Source: an uncultured virus (IMG/VR IMGVR_UViG_3300033074_002116) (lineage: Duplodnaviria; Heunggongvirae; Uroviricota; Caudoviricetes). From it: a DNA stretch of 64,000 bases. Where the stretch lies: the IMG/VR virus record IMGVR_UViG_3300033074_002116. One strand, given 5' to 3'. Under the pieces are notes generated by a model that saw only the letters and a list, made by a program, of their open reading frames with translations, had not been told where the DNA came from and made no database searches. Positions 759 to 39,804 of the stretch are shown here, piece after piece (the first letter of the stretch is position 1; each line of letters opens with the position of its first letter). The translations under genes were made by a program, and so were the position numbers.

Positions 759-1409
759 ATGAGCGATGTAATCATTAAACAGAATACCAGGATATTTACG
801 CCTTCTGAATATGAAAGCCTCCGTGGGGCCATGGATGCTCCCCACTACCCTTTGATCTGCGATTGCCTGCTTCTTTCCGGTATGCGACCCATTGAATTCA
901 GTCGGTTCCAGCTTGACTGGTACAAAGCATCACGAAGGATAATAAAACTCCCCAAGGGGGCTTGCCTTAAGACCCGCTGTGAGTACAAAGAGCGTACAAT
1001 TAATCTTAGTATGCCGGGTTGTGACGTTTTTGATCGCCTGATCTCTACAAAGTTTAAGCGAAAAGGAGAAGAGGTTTATGCCTTTGAGATAATGCCAAAA
1101 AAGGTATCCTTCGGGGATACGTTGGGCCGTTATGCCGTTTCTGCCGGATTGCCTGAAGGCACCATAGAGTTACCGGGTGGTTTAAAATATACCGGTCCTG
1201 ATGCCGGGGTTACTCCGAAAGCATTCCGCAAAACTCTGGTGTCCTGGCTTGTTGCTTGTTACCCTGAAAAGTTGGCATATATAGCTGCAAGCATGGGTCA
1301 CACTCCTGAAACGATTGTAAAGAATTACCTCGGGCTTGGCTTTACCGATGCGGAAATTGAAGTTATGAAAGTAAAGTATCTTCCAAACTGGGGTGGTGGA
1401 GAAATATGA
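759..1409 (+). CDS. int: Tyrosine recombinase/integrase (catalytic domain only)
   Basis: SGMRPIE (Arg-I), TPKAFRKT (K-x-x-R in place of H-x-x-R), SMGHT and KNYL (catalytic Tyr). Confidence 0.85.
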   Translation: MSDVIIKQNTRIFTPSEYESLRGAMDAPHYPLICDCLLLSGMRPIEFSRFQLDWYKASRRIIKLPKGACLKTRCEYKERTINLSMPGCDVFDRLISTKFKRKGEEVYAFEIMPKKVSFGDTLGRYAVSAGLPEGTIELPGGLKYTGPDAGVTPKAFRKTLVSWLVACYPEKLAYIAASMGHTPETIVKNYLGLGFTDAEIEVMKVKYLPNWGGGEI

Positions 1410-4559: not shown

Positions 4560-6044
4560 ATGACCCACCATACCTTCCGAAAAGAGTACTGGGATCAGAC
4601 CATTGCGTTTGATTGCCCTTTGACTAAGAAGCGGCATACAATTGAGGATTGTTTCCAGAAGTGCCAGGAGAACAGCTATGATTACCGCAGAAATTCGGAA
4701 GGAACTGTCGCAGCCTTTCTATATTGCCTCATAGATCCGCAGGAGAGATTCCTGCATAATGGAGAAGTGAGGGGGGATTTGTAATGTCCGAAGATGTTAA
4801 ATTCGGTTTAGTAAAGGTTGTAGTTGGCGCTGCGGTTGGCGGTTGGTTGCTGTTTTTGGCACATGTTGGTGGATATCCATGACCCGAAAAGTATGTTTTA
4901 TTGGTGACGACGGGCGGGTTGCGACCTGCACCCGCGATGATGAGAACTGCGCCGTCTGCGATTCGAAATCCGATTACGGAAAAGGCTTCCCGAAAGACAA
5001 CCTGGAGCCCCGCAATGTGGTGATGGTCCCGGATTACCGGGCCCGATGCTGCGGGACGTGCGGCAACCGCAAGAAAGAAGCGTATCCGGAGCAGTATGGC
5101 GACCGAGTGTATTGCCTGCTGAGCTGGACTTTTAAGGATCGGTATGGGATTTGTAGTGGGGAGTTTAAGCTGGAGGGGGAGTGAGTTAAGATGGAAATTA
5201 TTAAAAGACGCAAAATAAGAGATGAATTTGGACTTACTGCGCGATGCCGACAAATTTATGATTGTATATCCGATAAATCGTTCGAGGATGCAGATACGAT
5301 TATATCAAGGGTAAATTCAAGTACGCAATATCTGGTAAAAGGTAAACGAAAGATTATTCGCCCATTGACGAAAAGGATCTTCTTCTCCACAGTCTATGTG
5401 ATTAAAAAGACTGGCCTTGTTGAGGTGGATGCCAGCTCTCCTTATCATCCGAGATATAAGAGAAATTTGATTATAGACAACTCGAAAGAGAGCGCCGGGT
5501 GATTTAATGGCCCTCGTAATCACAATAGGGGATTGCGCTGATACGATCCGCAAGTACTCGGCCCAGAGAATTGGCGAGAAGGCGCGTGGCTGGAATGATT
5601 ACATAGTATTCCGGCATCTGCCTTATGTAGTGGATCCCCGGGAGCGGATCGGTGTTGTCCGCCATAAGTATGAAGATGGTGCAGATGTTCTTGCGTTCAA
5701 AGTGCTGCACCTGATCACCGATGTGGAAAAGACGGTTAAGATTTCAAGGGGGAAGAAAAATGTCATCATCCAATGAACTAACCGAGAAAGATTGTGACAC
5801 GCTTATGTCGGCATTGACGAAATGTCAAATGCTCCGAGAGATCGTCAAAAATGAGAGGTGCAAATGCAAGCTTTGCATTGTAACTGAGGATCATCTGAAA
5901 GCGGCTGTACGGACCGGACATATTCTCGCGGTCCTGCCATTTGGATTCCCGGAAATGAGTACGGAAGAGGAGGGCAAGCTTATAGAAAAGCTGCACGATC
6001 TGGAACGGCTGACGTGGCTAAAAGGTAAGATAAAAGGCGAGTGA
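4560..6044 (+). other. Cluster of small hypothetical genes, including Cys-rich proteins (4560-4784, 4879-5184, 5760-6044), a wHTH-like protein (5191-5502) and 5507-5776
   Basis: Overlapping ORFs, several with SD-like G-rich motifs; CxxC motifs. Confidence 0.6.
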
Positions 6045-6427
6045 AGTTGCAAACCCAATTCCATTTCAATGATCTGGTTTTAGCCTTAAAAGAGTTTAAG
6101 CTGCCCTGCGCACCAAGCCGGGAGAGCGAGATAGAACTTAGGCTCGTGCTTTTCCTTGAATCCAGAAAATTTCCTGTTAAAGAGCAGATTAGCTTTAAAA
6201 CCGGGCGCCTTGATGTTGTTGTCGGCCCGTATATTATTGAAGTTAAAAAGCTCGCGGGAAAAGGGATTGTCGAGCAGCTTGACAGGTACTCGGGTTTATG
6301 CGAAGGGCTTATTGTGGTTTGCTGGAGGGCAAGTGACCCACTGAAACTAATCTTTGCGATGGAAAAGGTATCTGCGCGAATACCTGTTGAATTGATCGAG
6401 GTTCGCAATACGTGCAGGATTGTCTGA
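6041..6427 (+). CDS. PD-(D/E)xK endonuclease
   Basis: ESEIE...GRLDVVVG.YIIEVKK...EQLDRY motifs. Confidence 0.75.
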   Translation: MKLQTQFHFNDLVLALKEFKLPCAPSRESEIELRLVLFLESRKFPVKEQISFKTGRLDVVVGPYIIEVKKLAGKGIVEQLDRYSGLCEGLIVVCWRASDPLKLIFAMEKVSARIPVELIEVRNTCRIV

Positions 6428-6429
6428 AA

Positions 6430-9264
6430 ATGGCAGAAGATGTGTTAAGTTATGGAACGTTGGAATATGTCTACGTAGAGCCGAAGGGATACCATGGCAA
6501 TCACTGGCTGGTAAGGGGGCACCAGCCTTGCCTTATGATATCGCGGGTTATCCCAAATTCCTGGTCGAATGGTGTTGGGGAACGGTGCGTGCCGGATAAC
6601 ATTTCTGCTGCCGAACATCTCCAATGGATTATGATGCGGTATCCGCTAAAGATACTCAGCCCGGAGATCTGGTTAAAGAAAGTTGAAATTATCAACGAGA
6701 TAACAAAGAAGAAGCAAAGCCTCAGGACTCTTACCGATTCAGTAAATATCGATCCGCAATTTATTGGAACACTGTTGCCCTTCCAAAAGAAGGGGGTTGA
6801 TTTTCTTTTAAAGACCAATGGCTGCGCTCTTGTTGCTGACGAGATGGGGTTGGGCAAAGGTCATCCGATGGATACAAAACTATTGTCTCCGGGGGGCTGG
6901 GTTAATATGGCGGATGTAAAAATTGGTACACTCCTTATAGGAAGTGATGGTACCCCATATCCAGTAAAGGGAATTTTTCCACGCGGTGAGATGGATATTT
7001 ACCGCGTCAATTTCCAAGATGGTGCGTCGGTTGAATGCACAGATGATCATCTTTGGCAAGTGAATTCCCCGCTACGAAAAAATAGGGGATATAAACCAAA
7101 AGTGTTGCCACTTTGTGAGATACGAGAAAAATTAACTCACAAAAATGGAAATCGCCAACATTTCATACCTTTGGTAAAACCGGTTAAATTTTCCGAGGTT
7201 GCTGAGGCTGGAATAGATATAGATCCATATATTTTGGGGATTATCTTGGGAGATGGCGGAATAAGTACAACTACGGTTATAATTTCATCAAATGATACTC
7301 AGATTATTGAATGTTTGTCTGAATATTTTGATAAAAAAAATATGAGCGTTAAAAAAAGGATTACGGGATGTGATTACGGGATTGTTCACAAAAGTTTTCC
7401 CCGAAGGAATTGGTTGGTTCAAAATCTAAAAAATTTGGGGTTGATGGGGCTTAAATCCCAGACAAAATTTGTTCCGCGTCGTTATCTTTATACTACGCCG
7501 GAAAACAGAATTGCTCTTTTACAGGGGCTTATGGATACCGATGGATATGTTTCCAAGGATGGAATGGTAGTACAATTCACAACGGTCTCTAAACAGCTTG
7601 CAGATGACGTTAAATTTATAGTTCGATCTTTGGGGGGCGTTGTTAAGTTATCGACTGAGATTCCCTCATTTACGTATAAAGGATTGAAAAAGAATGGGCA
7701 ACGGGCATATACCCTTTCAATATCCCTTCCTGGGGGTATTACTCCATTTCGATTAAAAAGGAAAGTTGCACTTTTTCATCCGAAAACAAAATATCCCCCG
7801 ACACGATGTATAAAATCTGTTGATTATGTGGGTAAAAAACGGGCCCAATGTATTGCTGTTGATTCTCCGGATCACCTTTACGTAACGGAGGATTTTATTT
7901 TAACTCATAATACTGTGGAGGCCTTGTCCTATCTCGTAACCTGTCCCGATGGCGGGTTCCCCTGCCTTATTATCGCCCCGCTTGTTACTCTGGTCAACTG
8001 GGAGCGCGAGATAGAACGGTTCATAAAGACTTCTTCCGGCAAGCCGTTTTCCGTTACCAAAATCCGCAGCGGGAAAAAGGGTCCGCTGACCGGGCAGAGA
8101 ACATTGAGTGACACCGGTGGTAATGCACAAATTTATCTTATAAATTACGATCTTGTTTCCCGTAGGCGCGATGACCTGGCGAAAATTCCCTTTAAAACTA
8201 TTATTGCCGATGAATGCCAGCATTTGAGAAACCCGGGATCGCAAAAGACTGCTGCTGCCCGTGAGCTTGTCGATCTCCAGAGTGTGCGCCACCGGATTGG
8301 GTTAAGCGGGACGCCGTGTTACAATCACGGGATTGAGATCTGGAGTATCTGCGATTTTATTAATCCCGGAATGCTCGGCACCTTTTCCGAGTTCAGAAGT
8401 GAGTTTATTTATAGTTTTGATCCGAAAGGCAGCATTGTTGAAAGCAAGCGGGGCGCACTTTATGAGATGCTTTCCGAGAGCGTGATGATCCGCCGCAGGA
8501 AATCCGACGTTTTAACCGATCTTCCGGATAAGACCCGATATCGTCAGCAGATAGATATCGATAAAGGATATTACGAGAGCGAGATGCGGAAGAACCTTGC
8601 CAAACTCCGTGAACGGCTCGAAGCTGCGCAGGCAAGAACTGACTTTAAGGCAATCGCTGAAACATCCGCGTATACTGAGTTCAAGGGCAATGAACGCATT
8701 GCTGCCGGAGTTGCAAAGGTTCCTTACGTTGTCGAATTTGTTACCGCAATGATGGAGAACGAAGAACCACTTGTGGTGTTTTGCCATCATATTGCCGTGC
8801 ATGATGCCTTGAAGGAAAAGCTGGCTGCCTATAAACCGTCCTGCATTATCGGTGGCCAGACCGATCTGCAAAGGCAGTTTGAGATTGACCAGTTCCAGAA
8901 CGGTAAAACCAAGCTGATGATTGCAGGGCTTCGGGCCGGTAATGTTGGGATTAATCTTACAAAAGCAAATTACGTCGTCTTTGCAGAGCTTGACTGGTCC
9001 CCGGCTATTCACCGGCAGGCTGAAGACCGCCTTCACCGGATCGGGCAGAAAAATGCAGTGTTTGCTTATTACCTGGAGGGCAAGGGAACGCTTGATGAGA
9101 AGATTGTCGGGGTTTTAACGGATAAGACTTTAGAACTCGATGAAATCCTGGGGGATGCGAACCGTGAAGAGGGCGCTACGCCGGATGAGCCATTGACCGA
9201 ACGCAACCGGCAATTTGTTAAGGCTATGGAAGAGAGGTTTTCAAAACTGAAGGTTGGTGCGTGA
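6430..9264 (+). CDS. SNF2-family (SMARCAL1/HARP-like) helicase, intein-containing
   Basis: LLPFQKKG, ADEMGLGK[intein]T, DECQH, LSGTP, VVFCHH, GINLT, QAEDRLHRIGQ. Confidence 0.95.
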   Translation: MAEDVLSYGTLEYVYVEPKGYHGNHWLVRGHQPCLMISRVIPNSWSNGVGERCVPDNISAAEHLQWIMMRYPLKILSPEIWLKKVEIINEITKKKQSLRTLTDSVNIDPQFIGTLLPFQKKGVDFLLKTNGCALVADEMGLGKGHPMDTKLLSPGGWVNMADVKIGTLLIGSDGTPYPVKGIFPRGEMDIYRVNFQDGASVECTDDHLWQVNSPLRKNRGYKPKVLPLCEIREKLTHKNGNRQHFIPLVKPVKFSEVAEAGIDIDPYILGIILGDGGISTTTVIISSNDTQIIECLSEYFDKKNMSVKKRITGCDYGIVHKSFPRRNWLVQNLKNLGLMGLKSQTKFVPRRYLYTTPENRIALLQGLMDTDGYVSKDGMVVQFTTVSKQLADDVKFIVRSLGGVVKLSTEIPSFTYKGLKKNGQRAYTLSISLPGGITPFRLKRKVALFHPKTKYPPTRCIKSVDYVGKKRAQCIAVDSPDHLYVTEDFILTHNTVEALSYLVTCPDGGFPCLIIAPLVTLVNWEREIERFIKTSSGKPFSVTKIRSGKKGPLTGQRTLSDTGGNAQIYLINYDLVSRRRDDLAKIPFKTIIADECQHLRNPGSQKTAAARELVDLQSVRHRIGLSGTPCYNHGIEIWSICDFINPGMLGTFSEFRSEFIYSFDPKGSIVESKRGALYEMLSESVMIRRRKSDVLTDLPDKTRYRQQIDIDKGYYESEMRKNLAKLRERLEAAQARTDFKAIAETSAYTEFKGNERIAAGVAKVPYVVEFVTAMMENEEPLVVFCHHIAVHDALKEKLAAYKPSCIIGGQTDLQRQFEIDQFQNGKTKLMIAGLRAGNVGINLTKANYVVFAELDWSPAIHRQAEDRLHRIGQKNAVFAYYLEGKGTLDEKIVGVLTDKTLELDEILGDANREEGATPDEPLTERNRQFVKAMEERFSKLKVGA
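6859..7911 (+). mobile_element. Class 3 intein (351 aa) with LAGLIDADG homing endonuclease, inserted in Walker A
   Basis: Starts GHPMDT, block B CTDDHLW, LAGLIDADG motifs ILGIILGDGG and LLQGLMDTDG, block F AQCIAVD, ends FILTHN followed by Thr. Confidence 0.92.
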
Positions 9265-9271
9265 TTTAAAA

Positions 9272-9715
9272 ATGATGAGAAAATTGCTTTTCACCGTATT
9301 TCTGCTCTCCCTCTTATTTCCTTTGGGATCGCTCGCTTGTCCGGATGATTTTTCCCTTGCCTTGGACGGCCACATGGTACGTTTACAGATTTCTCCCCCA
9401 AACAGTACTCCGATAACAATTGTCCCGATTTGGGATCGTCAACTTGCTGAGGGGCTATTGTCGATGGGTTATATTGATGAAGTGCTAGAGTATGCGCCCC
9501 CATTCCATGCAATATTAACGAATACTTCTGATGAGGGATATGCCGATGTTGCATTGTATGGCGTGATGAAATACCGGATAACTTTTGAGAGGTTTAACAA
9601 GTCTTATCTATTGTACCCATATGAAGATATAACGTATGTCTTTTTTGTCGATAACCCTTCTTCCGGATATCTGGAGGTGAGATCTGATATGCGCTTTACC
9701 TTTGCCAAAAATTAA
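9272..9715 (+). CDS. Secreted hypothetical protein
   Basis: Sec-type signal peptide MMRKLLFTVFLLSLLFPLGSLA. Confidence 0.6.
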   Translation: MMRKLLFTVFLLSLLFPLGSLACPDDFSLALDGHMVRLQISPPNSTPITIVPIWDRQLAEGLLSMGYIDEVLEYAPPFHAILTNTSDEGYADVALYGVMKYRITFERFNKSYLLYPYEDITYVFFVDNPSSGYLEVRSDMRFTFAKN

Positions 9716-9877
9716 CGCTTTTTTCCTTAGAATGGAGATAGAAGTACGCTTAGCCGTGCAAAGAGTTGAATATAATAGCGAGAGGCTTCCAGTTGGATTT
9801 TATCGCGATCTCCGCGGGATGGGTATTTGTGTGCATGGCCGCGGCATTAAATTCTGATGCAAGTAACTTTTAGTAAC

Positions 9878-9897
9878 TTATTTATACTTATAATACG
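9878..9897 (+). promoter_or_regulatory. TATA-box promoter of the tRNA/ncRNA array
   Basis: TTATTTATACTTATAATAC just upstream of the GC-rich structured region starting near 9909. Confidence 0.6.
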
Positions 9898-10024
9898 CAT
9901 TATTATTTGGCGAGGAAAGCCCCTCTGATCAAGGATTGCAAGTACTGCCCGTAGCCGAATCAACGAGAAGGGTCGGTGAGGTCACCCGTGTACCGAAAGT
10001 TGCCCGAAAAACACGGGGCTGAAC

Positions 10025-10095
10025 GCAACCTCGGACTGGCGAAGTCCTGCCCCATTGATCGTGGAAGGCACCGGGTTCAACTCCCGGAGGTTGCA
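10025..10095 (+). tRNA. tRNA-like element with atypical D and anticodon arms (nominal GAT anticodon)
   Basis: Acceptor GCAACCT/AGGTTGC+A; T-arm CCGGG-TTCAACT-CCCGG; D hairpin GGACT/AGTCC; bulged arm TGCC-CCA-TTGATCG-TGG-AA-GGCA. Confidence 0.6.
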
Positions 10096-10097
10096 TC

Positions 10098-10269
10098 TCC
10101 TGTGGGAGAAATCTGCCGTCAGTGGCGCGGCGTGGGTCTTAGGTTGTATAAACCGAACGATCTAAACGCTGATACAGGCGAAATGGACGATCATTCAAGG
10201 CCAGTTACGATCATCGAAATTCATGGAGCGCGACTCGTTCTTAACGTTCCCAAGATGCCCACCACAGGA
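10098..10269 (+). ncRNA. Putative structured RNA between tRNA-like elements
   Basis: Closing helix TCCTGTGG 10098-10105 / CCACAGGA 10262-10269; inner GAACGA/TCGTTC pairing. Confidence 0.45.
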
Positions 10270-10276
10270 AATCAGA

Positions 10277-10365
10277 GCAACCATAGAGTAGCGGTATATC
10301 TCGCCGGCACCTAGAGCCGGGCCGGGTCGCTCCCGGTGTCGTTGGTTCAAATCCAACTGGTTGCA
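10277..10365 (+). tRNA. Type II (long variable arm) tRNA, Leu-like, with CUA (amber) anticodon
   Basis: Acceptor GCAACCA/TGGTTGC+A; D stem GAG/CTC with GG in loop; anticodon arm CCGGC-ACCTAGA-GCCGG; variable arm CCGGG-TCGCT-CCCGG; T-arm GTTGG-TTCAAAT-CCAAC. Confidence 0.8.
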
Positions 10366-10366
10366 T

Positions 10367-10452
10367 CCCCAAGTACCGAAAAAAGGGAACGGGGCACCCG
10401 GATCGCTGTATGCGGTTGGAGTTGGCACCGGGTCCATTCGGAGCCGCATACA
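10367..10452 (+). ncRNA. Structured spacer RNA with a loop E/sarcin-ricin-like hairpin and a possible pseudoknot
   Basis: CCCC-A-AGTA-CC-GAAAAAA-GG-GAA-C-GGGG; 11-bp stem 10407-10417/10442-10452; ACCCGG 10396-10401 complements loop CCGGGT 10428-10433. Confidence 0.45.
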
Positions 10453-10474
10453 AAAAATGTATTAAACAGATACC

Positions 10475-10546
10475 GTTGCGGTGGGCTAGAGGCAATGCTT
10501 GCTCGCTTGGGACGAGCAGACGCAGGTTCGATCCCTGCCCGTGACA
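10475..10546 (+). tRNA. tRNA-Pro(UGG)
   Basis: Acceptor GTTGCGG/CCGTGAC+A; anticodon arm GCTCG-CTTGGGA-CGAGC; T-arm GCAGG-TTCGATC-CCTGC. Confidence 0.85.
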
Positions 10547-10550
10547 TTTA

Positions 10551-10623
10551 AGCCCCGTAGTGTAGTGGTCAATCATGCAGGAATTTGGATCCTGCGACAT
10601 CAGTTCGAATCTGATCGGGGCTG
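10551..10623 (+). tRNA. tRNA-Gln(UUG), archaeal type (A1-U72)
   Basis: Acceptor AGCCCCG/CGGGGCT; anticodon arm CAGGA-ATTTGGA-TCCTG; T-arm ATCAG-TTCGAAT-CTGAT. Confidence 0.92.
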
Positions 10624-10629
10624 TTTGCT

Positions 10630-10776
10630 ATGACCGTTGAAAAGATCAGTATAAATTCCGACCTGAAAAAAGAGCTTGATACCTATGGCCCTGGAAGCTA
10701 TAGTGTAAAGCTTTCCAAGGTACTGGGTATTGCTAAGGGTAAAATGGTGCAATGCCCATTGTTGAAGAGAGAGTGA
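10630..10776 (+). CDS. Small ribbon-helix-helix-like protein (48 aa, not in ORF track)
   Basis: MTVEKISINSDLKKELDTYGPGSYSVKLSKVLG. Confidence 0.5.
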   Translation: MTVEKISINSDLKKELDTYGPGSYSVKLSKVLGIAKGKMVQCPLLKRE

Positions 10777-10782
10777 TGCGGA

Positions 10783-11977
10783 ATGATTAACAAAATCAAA
10801 TTGCTTTTGAAAAGACTTTGCTGGAGCGGACGATCAAAACCGCTTGAAATTAACAGGTGCGGCCCCTTTATAAAAGAAGAAGACTGTAAGAAGATAAATG
10901 AGACCACTGAGGAATATTTTACTTACACCATTATTTGTATAATTTTGGCCTATGCTGCATTCTTTGTTCCAGCATTAATTTTGGGGGATAACGTAATTCA
11001 TTTTCCCGGAATCGTTATTATGTGTTCCTCTCCCATAATAGGGGTGTTTGGTGCAATGTGGGGTTCTGCATGGACAAGATCCCGGGAGATTATTAATTTG
11101 TTAAATGGGCAAGCGGGTAAAAAGAAGTGATTAAATGGATGGGGTTATAGAATTGGGCCGGATAGTTCGTTGTAAAAAATGCCATAAGTTACTTGATGAG
11201 ATTAAATTTATTCCCTCCCAGATAAAAATGCACAAAAAAGGACTTAATGGCGTATGCAGAGAATGCCAGAGGAAAGGTTCTCAAACAAAATGGGCTGATG
11301 TCCGAAAGATAGAGACGACTGTGATGGAACGGAGAAACGGTAAAAATTATAATGCTAGGTCCGTATGTAGTTATTTAAAAGCACATCACAAGAATTTGGA
11401 AAATGATCCCAATCGTTTGACTACGCAATTTATGCAAGATCTTATTGGGAAGACAACTTGTAAAAATTTTAATGGTGAATGAAATGATCCAAATCTGGTT
11501 CCTTTCCCCCAACGGAATGCTTGAAGCGGTATTCTGCGGTAGGAGATATGAGATCGTTGCAGAAGGTGTTGATGCCCGTACATCGTTGTGGTGGTTTAGG
11601 TTCTGGAATTCTCTGGAGGGTTAACATATGGTTTTCTCATATAACGAAAATGGCCGTTTTGCCAGCGATATCTCGCGGTGTATTATCTGCGGGAGACCAA
11701 CGCGATCTGATGGTAACGATAGCTGGATTCAATTATACGGTATCCGCGTATGCGGTCCCGAACACCTGAAAATGTTTGAGGAAAAATATTATCGCTCGCT
11801 ACATACACCGGATTGGTACAAGGGGGTTGGCGTACCGTGAATTATAATAACTTAGAGCGTGATCGGGTTTTCCGAATTAAAAATTGTATTGTAGTCGAAC
11901 GAGAGCTCAGAAAAACTGCGTATGTGGGTTATTCAATTGGCGAGGTAAAAGATATTGAGAAATTGAGAATTGATTAA
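10783..11977 (+). other. Small hypothetical genes: 2-TM protein 10783-11130, Zn-finger protein 11135-11482, 11628-11840 (CxxC), 11837-11977
   Basis: ORF coupling, CxxC motifs, hydrophobic helices. Confidence 0.55.
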
Positions 11978-11984
11978 AAACCCA

Positions 11985-12219
11985 ATTCGGCGATGATCCG
12001 GCCAAAAATCCGTGGCCGGTGAGGTAGACTCGATTCCGTACCTTGACGGGGCTGCCAGGGCCTGACCGCTTTGCCGAATGGCGGCTGGTCCGAACGGTTT
12101 TACCACGATCTCATACCTCCGTGCAGATGCAGCACACACACGAGATTGCCGGGCTACCGTTGCCCTCGCGGGTCAAACCGCCTAATGCGAACGGGTAGAA
12201 GGGGCGGGGCCCGGCAATT
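11985..12219 (+). ncRNA. Putative structured non-coding RNA(s) in a GC-rich intergenic region
   Basis: Four-way junction closed by ATTCGGCGA 11985-11993 / TTGCCGAAT 12071-12079; second domain closed by an 11-bp stem 12144-12154/12209-12219. Confidence 0.5.
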
Positions 12220-12289
12220 ACCGCCTTTTGCATAATCGCGCAACGCATAAACCGATATTTTTAATACTGACCACGCATAACACTATTTC

Positions 12290-13050
12290 ATGTCAAGAGC
12301 GAAAGTAAGCAGTATGCTTCCGTACTATGTGAGGATCAAATCCTGGATTGCCGATCATAAATGCCCTTATTGCGGCACGGATAAAATCACCGTTGAAGAT
12401 GCCAGAAAAAAGGGGCGGAAACATTGCATTTGTAATGAATGCCATGCTGAGAATTACGTGAGCCCGGAGTTGCTGGAGTAAGCGGTTATGGCAGACCCAT
12501 ATGATGTTTACAATGCGCTGATTGATCTCATGTGCTCACGTTGCAGGAAAGATATTTTTCGGGAATGCACGGAACAGGATGAGGATCGCCGGTGTAAAAC
12601 CAAGATTTTGTGTATGAAGAGGATCCTTGTGCCAAACGATGAGAATTATCCGACGGAGTTGCCACATGATTGTGATTGATTATTACACTGCCGTAAGCCT
12701 TTTTCTTCTAACTATCGGCAGTGTAATAATTATCATTGGGGTTAAACAAAAATTACATATCCTGGTGGCTTTCGGGATGATACCAATATTTACCGTTGTG
12801 CTATATTGGGCGTCCCTTTTTGATGCGTGGATTTTGGAGTTGGTTTAAATTGTTATCTAAAACTCCCCATAGCCAAGACGGTAAACCCCTGTGCCCGCTC
12901 TGCGGATCTTCATCAGTAAATGAGATCTTCCCTGAAGGCGATGCACGGCACCGGCACGTATGCCTTAATCCCAAGTGTCCGGAGATATCTAGTAACAAAC
13001 AAAGGAGAGCGGCAGGGTTGCCGGTGCTGTATCCGGATGTGGAAAAATGA
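12290..13050 (+). other. Operon of small Zn-ribbon (12290-12481, 12488-12679, 12850-13050) and 2-TM (12666-12848) genes
   Basis: CPYC...CNEC and CPLC...CLNPKC motifs; upstream TATA-like TTTTTAATAC near 12258. Confidence 0.6.
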
Positions 13051-20971: not shown

Positions 20972-21028
20972 GATTAGAATGTGTGTAATTGATTTATTTA
21001 AAATATTGGCAAGGCTCTTAAAGGGCGC

Positions 21029-21586
21029 GTGATCACTCCTGAGTGGAGAGAGAAATTACGGCAGGCGAGACTTGGGAAAAAAGCGAGCCCCGAAACCAGG
21101 TTAAAAATGAGTGAGGCACATTCTGGCGAAAAAAATAGTTTTTTTGGTAGGGGACACTCTGAAGAGACCAAAAAAGCCATTAGTGATTTTAGGATACAAA
21201 ATGGAATTGCTGCGGGTAAAAACAATCCGATGTATATCAATGGTAATAGTTTTTTACCATATTGCGAGAAATTTAATCCTGAATTTAAGAGGAGGGTCCG
21301 GGCATTTTTTAAAAATGTTTGCCAAAGATGCGGACATGTTCATCAAGAGGGCGAACCGAATATGACCGTTCACCATGTAAATTATAGAAAAGACTCTTGC
21401 TGTAATAAATACGTGATACCATTATTTATTACGGTATGCACCCCTACGACAAAAGGGCAACCTTGCCATTCTATAACTTCACACGATCGAGATTATTGGG
21501 AGATCTGTTTCACTCAATTAATTAACAACAAGTACCGTGGGAAATGTTACTTTACGAAAGAAGAGTATTACAAAACTGATAATTAG
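21029..21586 (+). CDS. NUMOD3-HNH homing endonuclease
   Basis: SPETRLKMSEAHSGEKNSFFGRGHSEETKKAIS (NUMOD3 repeats); CQRCG...VHHVNY...CH. Confidence 0.85.
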   Translation: MITPEWREKLRQARLGKKASPETRLKMSEAHSGEKNSFFGRGHSEETKKAISDFRIQNGIAAGKNNPMYINGNSFLPYCEKFNPEFKRRVRAFFKNVCQRCGHVHQEGEPNMTVHHVNYRKDSCCNKYVIPLFITVCTPTTKGQPCHSITSHDRDYWEICFTQLINNKYRGKCYFTKEEYYKTDN

Positions 21587-21590
21587 GACA

Positions 21591-21613
21591 CTTTTGGGGG
21601 TTTTCCCCAAAAG
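21591..21613. terminator. Hairpin between the convergent HNH and MCP-like genes
   Basis: CTTTTGGGG-GTTTT-CCCCAAAAG, 9-bp stem. Confidence 0.5.
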
Positions 21614-21639
21614 GAAACGCTGCCCAAATTGAGGCGCAT

Positions 21640-21969
21640 TTAGCGCCTGCCCTGCGTAACGCCCCCCAATCCGATGAGCATATACATGATGCCCGCGAAC
21701 CCTGCAACAATCAGGCCGACGCCTCCGATGGTGAAAGCGGTCGAGATATTGCTGAGCAGGTTAGAGAGCGTGGTGTTGAGCGTAGAGTTGGTGATCGAGC
21801 TTGCAACAGCAACGTAGAGTGCGTTGATGAGCACAAGGCCGATGATAAGGAAGGCTGCACCGACCACGATGGCCATGATGGAACCAACGAGGATAGCGGT
21901 AAATGCACCCTTAGAGATGCCGAGCCATTCCCGTACACCTTCTGCTTTCTTGGAAATCTCTGCAATCAT
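21640..21969 (-). CDS. Putative major capsid protein, spindle-shaped-virus type (SSV1 VP1/His1-like two-helix hairpin)
   Basis: Charged 21-aa leader ending SKG, two long hydrophobic helices joined by a loop with NST/NTT/NIS sequons, basic tail QGRR; own TATA (TTTAATA near 22011-22017), GGGGTGA SD, strongly biased codons (ATC, CTC, AAC, GCA). Confidence 0.7.
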   Translation of the reverse strand: MIAEISKKAEGVREWLGISKGAFTAILVGSIMAIVVGAAFLIIGLVLINALYVAVASSITNSTLNTTLSNLLSNISTAFTIGGVGLIVAGFAGIMYMLIGLGGVTQGRR

Positions 21970-22069
21970 AAACAGTTTCACCCCCTGATCACTATATGAA
22001 ATTTAGAAAGTATTAAATAGTTGTTCAACTCTATTCAATATTAATCATTATTAATGAGAGTGTTTAACT

Positions 22070-39100: not shown

Positions 39101-39804
39101 GAAGTCTTTCCTGATCCGTCGGTATTTCGGTACACGCTTGCATTCGGGTCGTGCGTCGCAACCATTTGTAGGATATAGGTGTCCGACGCTGCTGTGAAAC
39201 TATCTCCGTATGCCCAGTCAGCAAATATCGGGTCTGTATATGCAGTAGCGACGCCCCCCGATTCAAGTTGGACCCCATCAACGTAGAAATCGGCAGTTTC
39301 GTTAGCGGCAGTCCGGATTTGGATTTTTGCGCCTCCGGCAGAAGTACCAAACGTTTTATTGATGGAGTATCGGGTGAATGTGCTCGTCAGAGTAATGGTG
39401 CTGGATGCAACGTTGTTGATGTACGTTCCGTTCGAGGCGTATTCGTAGAGATATATTTTGACTGTTCCGTTGCCCTTGAGGTACGTTGAAGCCGTGTATT
39501 GCTGACCGGGAGTTATGTTGGTGGCGGGATCTGTATATATTCCCTCTCCTATGATTAGGTGGGGTGTGGTGGCGCCGATTGAGTAATTTCCCTGCCATGC
39601 TGTAGAGTTGGTGGCCGTGAGTGTCACGCCGGAACTTGCCAAAAATCCGTCCGTTATGGCGAACTCTCCACCATCGGCAGAATTGAGCCACAATATATTT
39701 TCTGCCCCCGCCATTCCCACCAGCATCCCAAAAATCAGGATACCGATCAATGCCAGTTGCCACTTCCGGATCCCGGCTTTCCCTTCGCTTGTTTTACCTT
39801 TCAT
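36103..39804 (-). CDS. 1233-aa secreted adhesin: CBM-like domain, SGNH/GDSL hydrolase, three PKD domains, two cohesin-like repeats
   Basis: FYVDGVQLE (CBM-like); AYGDSFT, FGANDW, DVVHPN (SGNH); WHWDFGDG, YSWSFGDG, WSWDFGD (PKD); repeated INN.TPYT.TVV..NITNTT.V.GN. Confidence 0.85.
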   Translation of the reverse strand: MKGKTSEGKAGIRKWQLALIGILIFGMLVGMAGAENILWLNSADGGEFAITDGFLASSGVTLTATNSTAWQGNYSIGATTPHLIIGEGIYTDPATNITPGQQYTASTYLKGNGTVKIYLYEYASNGTYINNVASSTITLTSTFTRYSINKTFGTSAGGAKIQIRTAANETADFYVDGVQLESGGVATAYTDPIFADWAYGDSFTAASDTYILQMVATHDPNASVYRNTDGSGKTSIWGLANVATHPLYGVPRKSFTLFGANDWNYTTGEGTCENLIGIADSQSAAGSIPYILINTVFNTTRFWNSTYSEQWAKIYAIEACLDARNRSYIKAFDAVDSIPGNGIPDEINESLMRDVVHPNTEGQRLIGEYVWAHLATGTAAFTANATSGTAPLSVQFNDTTSLDPTLWHWDFGDGNTSTVQNATHTFGVGNWSVNLTATNAAGSNTSASQWINVTSGADPNPYSWIKFKAGESLSINNGTPYTATVVVRNITNTTNVIGNISFNQTVFAVNNLRINTSSIPSGLVLDSYDINANWINFSVSRAAGIAIPYPNGAAILDLNVSYVSYAAPGYSVLASFTNASKYYDSTNLTYWPFNTLSSGYAVAGKWGSSPGSVIKYKSLTSSTQINNQTPYTETVVIQNITNTTSVRGNLTWNTAHVGVSNLRVNTSQTAGLSLISSSINSTGGFANFVVNKSGGIPIPTSSTAILDFDITYTKYISPGSLDNFSFGSSQYETDGTYYTFGSSVNYSAIIGTWGPITANFTGSPTLVAGGFPVTFTDNSFGYPSAYSWSFGDGNTSSVKNPTYTYSSIGLYTVSETAYMSENASVTNTLTRTNYINVTTAVPASPVANFTGTPTTVSVGSSVQFNDTSTGIPTSWSWDFGDTFGSTLQNPVHAYSSAGNYTVNLTVTNGIGSNTTSKINYIWVKSGFSGYTQQDLVMDPLYTLTLNFVDSSTNLPIPIVRVVNAADGTSVNTPTGTYTGTFGYSTVVLYLYSDGYQSKTVSYIMTADRVETVQMTAATTQSQNTNIIYTQHQVRLRVLDLWANPLKGITITASYVNSTLPGNNATFLEQAFGVSASVAETMMNSGMAMQGITATDGAQVFTMFPSLTYSLSMVNSTAGVSCQKSLAPEDNDYILYCPTSSQSLGYNTTATQLAKSYVWLSEPNKSYVTANYQYQDPLGLTTDLFMNLTCKDNGTVFWSHDYGNPGTSLIEFNYTIPNVRGMTINYGMYPVRSG

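Follow-up and report, generated by a model that had tools for sequence, protein, structure and literature searches.

The 64,000-nucleotide DNA of an uncultured virus, IMG/VR record IMGVR_UViG_3300033074_002116 and here called the window, carries on its plus strand an array of transfer RNA (tRNA) and tRNA-like units that alternate with spacers. The first two spacers, named here non-coding RNA (ncRNA)-A (9909-10024) and ncRNA-B (10096-10276), do not code for protein and are under strong purifying selection, and B contains one hairpin that covaries between relatives. The tRNA-like unit between them, U1 (10025-10095), and the predicted suppressor tRNA that follows B (10277-10365) have changed in relatives in ways that preserve their structure. 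Judged from these comparisons, it is somewhat probable that A and B are released as functional RNAs by tRNA-punctuated processing.

The original prediction, which a model made from the letters of the window, had described four tRNA or tRNA-like units alternating with three spacers of about 110, 180 and 110 nt behind one TATA-like box, and this anatomy was confirmed. In order, the array consists of A (116 nt, 57% G+C), U1, B (181 nt), a class II tRNA with anticodon CUA, spacer 3 (10366-10474, 109 nt), tRNA-Pro (UGG; 10475-10546) and tRNA-Gln (UUG; 10551-10623, with first pair A1-U72), all on the plus strand. Three of the four units are real tRNAs, as they are called by ARAGORN and exceed the 29-bit cut-off of the Rfam tRNA model RF00005 (47.7 bits for 10277-10365, 49.9 for tRNA-Pro and 59.1 for tRNA-Gln), whereas U1 has a tRNA-like fold and is not called as a tRNA. 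The helices listed in the prediction are present as well: AGCCCC (9918-9923) pairs with GGGGCT (10015-10020) in A, TCCTGTGG (10098-10105) pairs with CCACAGGA (10262-10269) within inverted repeat I1 and closes B, a predicted multi-helix RNA, and the 11-bp stem at 10407-10452 in spacer 3 is a perfect 9-bp stem (10407-10415 with 10444-10452) that RNAfold lengthens to 11 bp. The repeated motif GTACCGAAA occurs at 9990 and 10373, as had been noticed, and has a third copy at 39125 on the minus strand; three matches compare with 0.44 expected in the window, and as many were reached in 1 of 100 shuffles.

Conservation and structure of ncRNA-A and ncRNA-B

Relatives of the locus were collected with a profile of the neighbouring SNF2 helicase, which led to 80 of 95 confirmed metagenome loci and to seven genome loci. 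By blastn only one of these 87 loci, L001, whose helicase is 98% identical, carries the array locus, and tRNAs were found in one of ten related loci scanned. A word index of public runs located parts of the locus in 19 further runs from eight studies, which cover landfill, groundwater, aquatic, wastewater and freshwater habitats. Four runs from four studies (X2, X5, X8 and X15) were examined as assembled contigs, and all of them hold pieces of the block 9819-10302 with few changes and in at least three sequence variants: X2 covers 9819-10184 (16 changes and one gap), X5 9819-10102 (10 changes), X15 9945-10281 (13 changes) and X8 9866-10058 (3 changes). Each of the 19 runs holds a fraction of 0.2-0.37 of the words of the locus. 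Searches of IMG/VR gave no relative by the flanking proteins and 0, 0, 1 and 3 matches, all by chance, for four DNA patterns; blastn of 9800-10700 against 50,697 phage records returned nothing, the locus was not found in two genomes with SNF2 relatives, and among 401 Thermoproteota genomes 12 gave chance matches of 22-39 nt. When covariance models of U1 and B were run on the window and on 14 related loci, they detected no additional copies.

Compared with L001, 48 of the 193 fourfold degenerate sites of the SNF2 gene, which serve as the neutral reference, differ (24.9%), as do 33 of 147 positions (22.4%) in the non-coding stretch 9673-9819. In A a single position of 116 differs (0.9%), in U1 5 of 71 (7%) and in B 10 of 181 (5.5%), while the tRNA following B differs at 32 of its 89 positions. 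The two spacers have thus diverged 5 to 25 times less than the adjoining neutral sites, and if sites changed at the neutral rate, 457 of them would show at most 14 differences with a probability of 6e-38. Across the contigs of the four studies, A varies only at 9934 and 9983.

A protein-coding explanation of this constraint was rejected. The sole long open reading frame (9976-10314, or 9877 to 10551 with readthrough of TAG) is broken by a one-base deletion at 10121 in L001, X2 and X5 and by a second such deletion, at position 10242, in X8, which shows that the block does not code for protein. A 15-codon frame lies at the presumed transcript start, from TTG at 9907 to TAG at 9952, where A hardly varies. 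Low divergence combined with frame-breaking deletions marks A and B as selected non-coding sequence, the alternative to which is a recently exchanged block. The original prediction had put itself at stake on spacers that would be neither conserved nor covarying in relatives; A and B are conserved and a hairpin of B covaries, which leaves the idea standing.

This hairpin (10142-10154) reads GGTT-GTATA-AACC in the window and AGCT-GTATA-AGCT in L001, X2 and X5, so that the pairs 10142/10154 and 10144/10152 have changed on both sides. Two or more compensatory pairs arose in 298 of 100,000 random placements of nine transitions (P about 0.003, with the fold predicted from the window alone). In X15, the variant 10151 A>G gives a U-G at 10145/10151, a pair that is possible only in RNA from the plus strand. 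For the differences between the window and L001 over the whole of B, the structure predicted by RNAalifold has no broken pair, and the fold predicted from the window only has two compensatory changes, two one-sided changes that keep the pair and one broken pair. Of the 17 variant events displayed for B, four are the substitutions that make up the two compensatory pairs, six leave a pair intact as G-U or A-U, and seven, namely five substitutions and the two one-base deletions, affect columns that are not paired. Run X15 also holds a copy of 10151-10223 that has diverged further. Covariation, which had been proposed as a check of the spacers, was found in one hairpin of B with its two compensatory pairs and not in the helices that the original prediction had named.

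The sequence of A offers other clues. Its helix AGCCCC/GGGGCT, together with the following G, reproduces acceptor pairs one to six and the discriminator base of tRNA-Gln from this array, and the motif that it has in common with spacer 3 extends to 12 of 14 nt. Scanning of A and B against Rfam at an expectation value (E) ≤ 10, one of the checks suggested beforehand, returned no family for either. Box C/D small RNAs (sRNAs) have a C box, RUGAUGA, near the 5' end, a D box, CUGA, near the 3' end, both inside a short terminal stem, and a length of about 50-70 nt. In A, a CUGAUCA follows the 5' strand of the terminal helix, and a CUGA overlaps the 3' strand of this helix instead of lying inside it; with this arrangement of boxes and lengths of 116 and 181 nt, the C/D box class was rejected for both A and B, and the small nucleolar RNA rows that Rfam reported at the locus are below threshold and on the wrong strand. 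Targets for antisense pairing of the spacers elsewhere in the window were not detected, as no match exceeded 12 nt (15 nt with one mismatch) and E-values were those of chance.

A second G+C-rich stretch (60%) without a credible gene and with a T-run at its end lies at 11937-12235, and it has three collinear exact 9-mers in common with A (TTGGCGAGG, CGGTGAGGT and ACGGGGCTG). This chain scores 27, where the best of 1045 background windows scores 19, although with ordinary local alignment the likeness to A lacks significance, as 90 of 693 windows do as well. The stretch has no Rfam match and a fold z-score of -1.24, and it may be a paralogous non-coding RNA.

That the block 9820-10302 is instead conserved at the DNA level or for historical reasons, as a recent recombination cassette or as a protein-binding region with a regulatory, origin or attachment role, appears unlikely. 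Such a reading would fit the abrupt start of conservation near 9820, 5' of any transcript, and its equally abrupt stop at 10302 inside the next tRNA, as well as an array content that differs between relatives as at a recombination hot spot, the presence of an integrase gene in the window (759-1409) and the reappearance of U1's 3' half in different surroundings in run X8. However, the two compensatory pairs in one hairpin and the G-U intermediates that only one strand allows point to RNA, all five changes in U1 spare its helices, the block exists in at least three sequence variants with the same low divergence, and the integrase is located 8.5 kb from the array block. The pattern of substitutions hence argues against a recent exchange.

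The island is modular in appearance (10063-10101 and the joints in X8), and the content of the array differs among relatives. L001 has neither spacer 3 nor tRNA-Pro and carries an insertion of about 850 nt with two frames ahead of the small gene. In contigs of X8, a U1-like 3' half is joined to 10275 (B is missing, and the joint runs from 10101 with intervening letters that are not known) and, in another case, to 10630 (the shorter side has only 29 nt).

Several points weigh against the release of A and B as functional RNAs. L001 is the single full relative of the locus, and the near invariance of A offers no covariation; so uniform a conservation could also stem from a function of the DNA itself or from a block that was recently exchanged by recombination and has sharp edges close to 9820 and 10302. 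In B, two displayed changes, T>C at 10101 (in the 8-bp closing helix) and T>C at 10137, would each disrupt a predicted pair unless they are compensated at undisplayed sites, and although six of the eight one-sided changes keep their pair, which is suggestive, this is not significant, since about half of transitions would do so by chance. The spacers fold no better than shuffled sequences, with z-scores of +0.77 for A, -1.35 for full-length B (-1.38 on the opposite strand) and, in the case of spacer 3, -1.41, so their helices alone do not exceed chance; what does exceed it is conservation in relatives and the one covarying hairpin. Contigs of X8 hint at arrays that lack B, in which case B would be dispensable. 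Finally, a single transcript, its cutting by ribonuclease (RNase) P and RNase Z, stable A and B RNAs and a function for them are predictions from the sequence. The proposal that the tRNAs act as processing signals for ncRNAs is consequently supported in part: the conservation and non-coding nature of A and B, one covarying hairpin and intact acceptor and T arms speak for it, and helices that do not covary and folds that resemble those of shuffles speak against it.

Putative processing units and the predicted transcript

U1 folds into a cloverleaf of -34.7 kcal/mol (z-score -3.76), a value that none of 200 shuffles reached. It has a 7-bp acceptor stem, one base, a 5-bp D stem whose 5-nt loop includes GG, a long anticodon-type arm of eight pairs with an AA bulge, a one-base variable region, a 5-bp T stem with a 7-nt T loop and discriminator A. 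ARAGORN does not call it, no RF00005 row appears at E ≤ 10, and only its T arm matches tRNA-like models, among them the mascRNA model of Rfam (13.8 bits, E 1.3; cut-off 42.5 bits). Classification as a tRNA was rejected, since the score, the finder call and a 5-bp anticodon stem with a 7-nt loop are all lacking; with its tRNA-like acceptor stem, T arm and GG-containing D loop, U1 would work like the body of a tRNA without being one. No second copy of it exists in the window. Of its five changes relative to L001, three lie outside helices and two convert a pair to G-U, as at the seventh acceptor pair (U-A in the window and U-G in L001), so pairing is spared. In the CUA tRNA, the seventh acceptor pair has changed from A-U in the window to G-C in L001 and three of the five T-stem pairs have changed on both sides. 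Because the changes in both units keep pairing, each is an independently folded module of acceptor stem and T arm. Acceptor and T arms are what RNase P and RNase Z recognise, and in the tRNA and tRNA-like units flanking the spacers they are intact. Rows of 'Plastid-ycf2' that Rfam returned for the reverse strands of U1 and the CUA tRNA (24-30 bits, cut-off 65.7) were taken as artefacts, and scans with gathering thresholds and at E ≤ 10 of the window, the locus, U1, A, L001 and 11900-12300 gave only the three tRNAs and sub-threshold rows.

The resemblances among the units also bear on the idea that the spacers are functionless remnants of tRNA genes, decaying after duplication and turnover in a tRNA island. 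U1 and the CUA tRNA have the T arm, the 3' strand of the acceptor stem and the trailer in common (21 of 27 nt), the terminal helix of A equals the acceptor stem of tRNA-Gln, and relatives gain and lose units. Decay should nevertheless lead to the neutral divergence of about 25%, where 0.9 to 5.5% is observed, and no tRNA model matches A or B at E ≤ 10, which makes this origin quite improbable for the spacers as a set. For spacer 3 only, it is plausible. This spacer opens with CCCAAGTACCGAAA, a 12/14 copy of the motif in A, and the loop of its long hairpin (10407-10452) carries GGCACCGGGTCCA, which resembles a segment of the U1 T arm as a 12/13-nt copy. It is missing from L001, and the near-identical copies in X5 and X8 include a change at 10413 (C>T) that keeps a G-U pair. 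The extension of the ncRNA proposal to spacer 3 is accordingly not supported, with no informative relative and a hairpin loop that holds a near copy of a U1 T-arm segment; it is the weaker case and looks in part like tRNA debris.

Upstream of the array, the conserved block 9820-9908 (3 of 89 positions differ in L001) contains a GCCGCGGC palindrome and the tandem 10-mers AGTAACTTTT/AGTAACTTAT (9862-9881), which lie directly 5' of the TATA-like strings (9881-9895, plus strand). The block is read as a putative archaeal promoter, and the tandem 10-mers, the palindrome and the conservation suggest that it is a regulated one. It adjoins near-neutral sequence, namely the stretch 9673-9819 with its 33 differences in 147 positions. 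No T-run of four or more occurs on the plus strand between 9872 and 10804, so that a single transcript of the array is plausible. Viral ncRNAs linked to tRNAs, such as RNAC and RNAD of bacteriophage T4 and the tRNA-miRNA-encoded RNAs (TMERs) of murine gammaherpesvirus 68 (MHV68), are marked by an ncRNA gene adjoining a tRNA or tRNA-like unit within one viral transcription unit, and this arrangement is found at the array, in its predicted transcript and its viral or mobile-element setting.

The transcript probably extends into a conserved 48-codon gene (10630-10776, plus strand) as its first mRNA: the gene starts 6 nt 3' of tRNA-Gln, and neither a T-run nor a TATA-like string lies between it and the array. 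Its product is identical to that of L001 in 42 of 48 residues (84.7% identity at the DNA level). A cut by RNase Z after tRNA-Gln would leave the gene on a nearly leaderless mRNA.

This layout lends some credit to a reading in which the spacers act in cis within the precursor, as a structured leader and intergenic segments that determine in what order or how efficiently the tRNAs mature, or that regulate the mRNA downstream, and are broken down once processing is complete. The array is directly 5' of the conserved small gene with no promoter-like string or T-run between them, the promoter block is conserved together with the spacers, and the thermodynamic signal for independent folding is weak. 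We regard this as possible but rather unlikely, since one change in 116 nt and 10 in 181 nt are far above the constraint that is usual for leaders and trailers of tRNA precursors, B has its own terminal helix and an internal covarying hairpin, and the preservation of U1 without a decoding-type anticodon arm is sensible if a neighbour must be released.

If A and B are indeed released, an archaeal-type promoter would drive, in an uncultivated virus or provirus of archaea, a polycistronic RNA cassette in the order ncRNA-A, U1, ncRNA-B, leucine-type UAG-reading tRNA, spacer 3, tRNA-Pro, tRNA-Gln and small protein gene. Host RNase P would cut at the 5' end of each tRNA or tRNA-like unit and RNase Z after its discriminator base. 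A would then be freed from the primary 5' end to 10024, B as 10096-10276 with its ends held together by the terminal helix, and the downstream mRNA with a leader of 6 nt. U1 would serve as a processing handle and not as a decoder, and A and B would be the selected products. As A carries the acceptor stem of the array's tRNA-Gln and the cassette includes a stop-reading tRNA, our guess is that both RNAs act on the host's tRNA and translation apparatus, by binding components of it or imitating them.

A more daring proposal for A is that it represents a drastically reduced, viral core of RNase P RNA or a mimic of it, placed 4 nt 5' of U1. An RNA of this type would join host RNase P proteins and recruit them to the tRNA array, or cleave its own 3' tRNA-like unit in cis; if so, no RNase P-type RNA of smaller size would be known, nor an earlier one of viral origin. 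For comparison, 24 archaeal RNase P RNA loci were fetched, 19 of which could be oriented. These 19 RNAs have GAGGAAAC-TCC..CC and, later, AAAACAGAA followed by the complementary strand, and in A, GAGGAAA leads into AGCCCC and, farther on, AAAAACAC leads into the complementary GGGGCT. A descriptor of this core arrangement matched the window once (9912) and 1.69 Mb of other loci twice, but it was designed after the match had been seen, and 13 of 300 shuffled windows contain at least one match. No Rfam RNase P family is found at E ≤ 10 in 9700-10800 or 9895-10030, and A is not among the 6, 36 and 30 matches of nhmmer profiles built from the 19 RNAs, their 5' core and their 3' core. A also has no one-base bulge in its helix (all 19 real RNAs match when the bulge is allowed, and none without it), no ACAGAA string, no GAA of the second junction and nothing 5' of the core, including the 5' helices. 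Present at the junctions are GAGGAAA with AGCCCC and AAAAACAC with GGGGCT. A kinship of A with RNase P RNA, or mimicry of it, is very improbable.

A leucine-type tRNA for UAG and the use of TAG

The tRNA that follows B (10277-10365) has a 3-bp D stem, a 20-nt variable region with a 5-bp variable-arm stem, A73 and the anticodon loop ACCUAGA, and its anticodon CUA reads UAG. Pyrrolysine tRNA likewise has CUA, and in addition its variable loop is very short, its D loop small and its anticodon stem lengthened. The 20-nt variable region led us to reject this class for 10277-10365, the 'Pyl' label of ARAGORN being derived from the anticodon alone; a compact architecture as in pyrrolysine tRNA is seen in U1, without CUA. 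According to an excerpt of a study of archaeal leucine tRNA, identity rests on A73 together with a long variable arm, and the anticodon is not an identity element (PMC9976931). By these rules, 10277-10365 is leucine-type, and it is read as a predicted leucine-type amber suppressor scaffold. U33, looked for as a mark of a functional suppressor, is replaced by C, also in L001, and this C33 is unusual.

In L001, the corresponding tRNA (2832-2921) retains the class II scaffold with its acceptor stem, D arm and variable arm, and both A73 and the 5-bp variable-arm stem are kept although the anticodon arm is replaced by one with the stem CCCC/GGGG and the six-base loop GCUUAA. ARAGORN cannot name its anticodon, and Rfam gives it 35.5 bits; the form with the six-base loop also occurs as loose ends in X5 and X8. 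The loop GCUUAA is UUA-like, that is, of the ochre type. With CUA in the window and a UUA-like loop in L001, the anticodon appears to switch between two stop-codon readers within one virus lineage.

The use of stop codons in the window is skewed in a manner that concerns this tRNA. Of 72 predicted genes, one ends with TAG, 44 with TGA and 27 with TAA, while TAG makes up 16% of the stop-type trinucleotides (a binomial calculation by hand gives about 5e-5 for 1 in 72). The only gene with a TAG end (21029-21586) resembles NUMOD3 homing endonucleases and is possibly a recent arrival. Recoding of TAG was considered and rejected, because readthrough of TAG lengthens no long frame, and the one frame with three TAG codons (21002-21988) was discounted since it lies on the strand opposite a membrane-protein gene; the 64-kb window has no in-frame TAG that is credible. 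Given few TAG ends and no in-frame TAG, the codon is avoided and not recoded, which fits active suppression by 10277-10365 or a host that reads UAG.

Known systems and genome setting

The release of small RNAs by tRNA punctuation is known from mitochondria, bacteriophage T4, the TMERs of herpesviruses and MALAT1, and the small RNAs of T4 are matured together with its tRNAs. To our knowledge, the ncRNAs of archaeal viruses are almost unexplored. The TMERs of the herpesvirus MHV68 consist of a viral, non-decoding tRNA-like element fused to ncRNA modules and cut by tRNase Z, in which the tRNA-like part is there for expression and processing; they have an internal RNA polymerase III promoter within this part and microRNA precursor hairpins of about 60 nt, and belong to a eukaryotic virus, whereas the array has an upstream TATA-type promoter, predicted products of 116 and 181 nt and an archaeal setting without a microRNA pathway.

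Other systems are similar in single aspects. In T4, an excerpt of the literature describes two small RNAs of unknown role transcribed from the tRNA region (PMC3014915); as far as that excerpt goes, these RNAs, RNAC and RNAD, resemble the proposed A and B RNAs in being viral small RNAs inside a tRNA cluster, made from the stretch that also yields the tRNAs. T4 infects bacteria and relies on a bacterial promoter and bacterial processing, the blastn search of phage records showed no sequence likeness to the array and, in contrast to T4, a dedicated tRNA-like element parts the two RNAs here. In Nanoarchaeum equitans, tRNA-sRNA precursors are described in which RNase Z makes the 5' end of the sRNA (excerpt of PMC3491384); those sRNAs are, in the excerpt, cellular C/D box guides, and A and B are viral, without the C/D arrangement and two to three times longer. 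The mammalian MALAT1-mascRNA transcript contains a non-decoding tRNA-like structure at which RNase P makes the 3' end of the upstream ncRNA (excerpt of PMC8457004), but it is a nuclear long non-coding RNA without homology to the array, and the match of U1 to it is far under the Rfam cut-off. Recoded phages, such as crAss-like ones, carry a suppressor tRNA and an in-frame stop codon in late genes (excerpt of PMC7886860). To the extent of this excerpt, the window is like them in having a viral stop-reading tRNA and avoiding TAG as a stop, and unlike them in its missing credible in-frame TAG and its class II leucine-type archaeal scaffold with C33 and a varying anticodon.

A and B are of a size expected for RNAs, have no Rfam family and are under constraint above that of the adjacent protein genes. 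Should their release be borne out, the use of tRNA punctuation for making small RNAs would be extended to archaeal viruses, and two new RNA families would be added. The stop-reading tRNA, together with a TAG end in 1 of 72 genes, suggests that the virus interferes with or adapts to the reading of stop codons by its host, an interplay of a kind that was not found described in the titles and abstract openings of the literature searched.

The window, with a G+C content of 45%, looks like an archaeal virus or provirus. Besides the integrase-like gene, it contains genes for RadC, a DNA methyltransferase and an anti-repressor-like protein and many others without a family, and several of its proteins have archaeal marks (PKD, DUF3821, TrmB/DUF7343 and a protein similar to the MJECL33 family of methanogen elements). 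A clustering of GATC at the locus (nine sites in about 700 nt) was dropped as a lead because GATC is enriched over the whole window, with 433 sites against 304 expected. Among the 401 Thermoproteota genomes, no match to the viral tRNA-Gln exceeds 82% identity, so no host is named by it.

The neighbour of the array is the SNF2 helicase gene (6412-9264), which is split by a LAGLIDADG homing-endonuclease insert (6858-7918). The helicase is 77-98% identical to its relatives in metagenomes, and its closest cellular relatives are in Bathyarchaeia (60%) and Nitrososphaeria (about 52-56%). The insert is intein-like, and exactly this stretch is missing from the relatives L001, L002 and L008. A protein of 128 residues without a known family (6041-6427) is encoded 5' of the helicase, and the two genes occur together in every related locus, among them those of two Bathyarchaeia genomes (39-43% identity), and thus form a conserved two-gene module.

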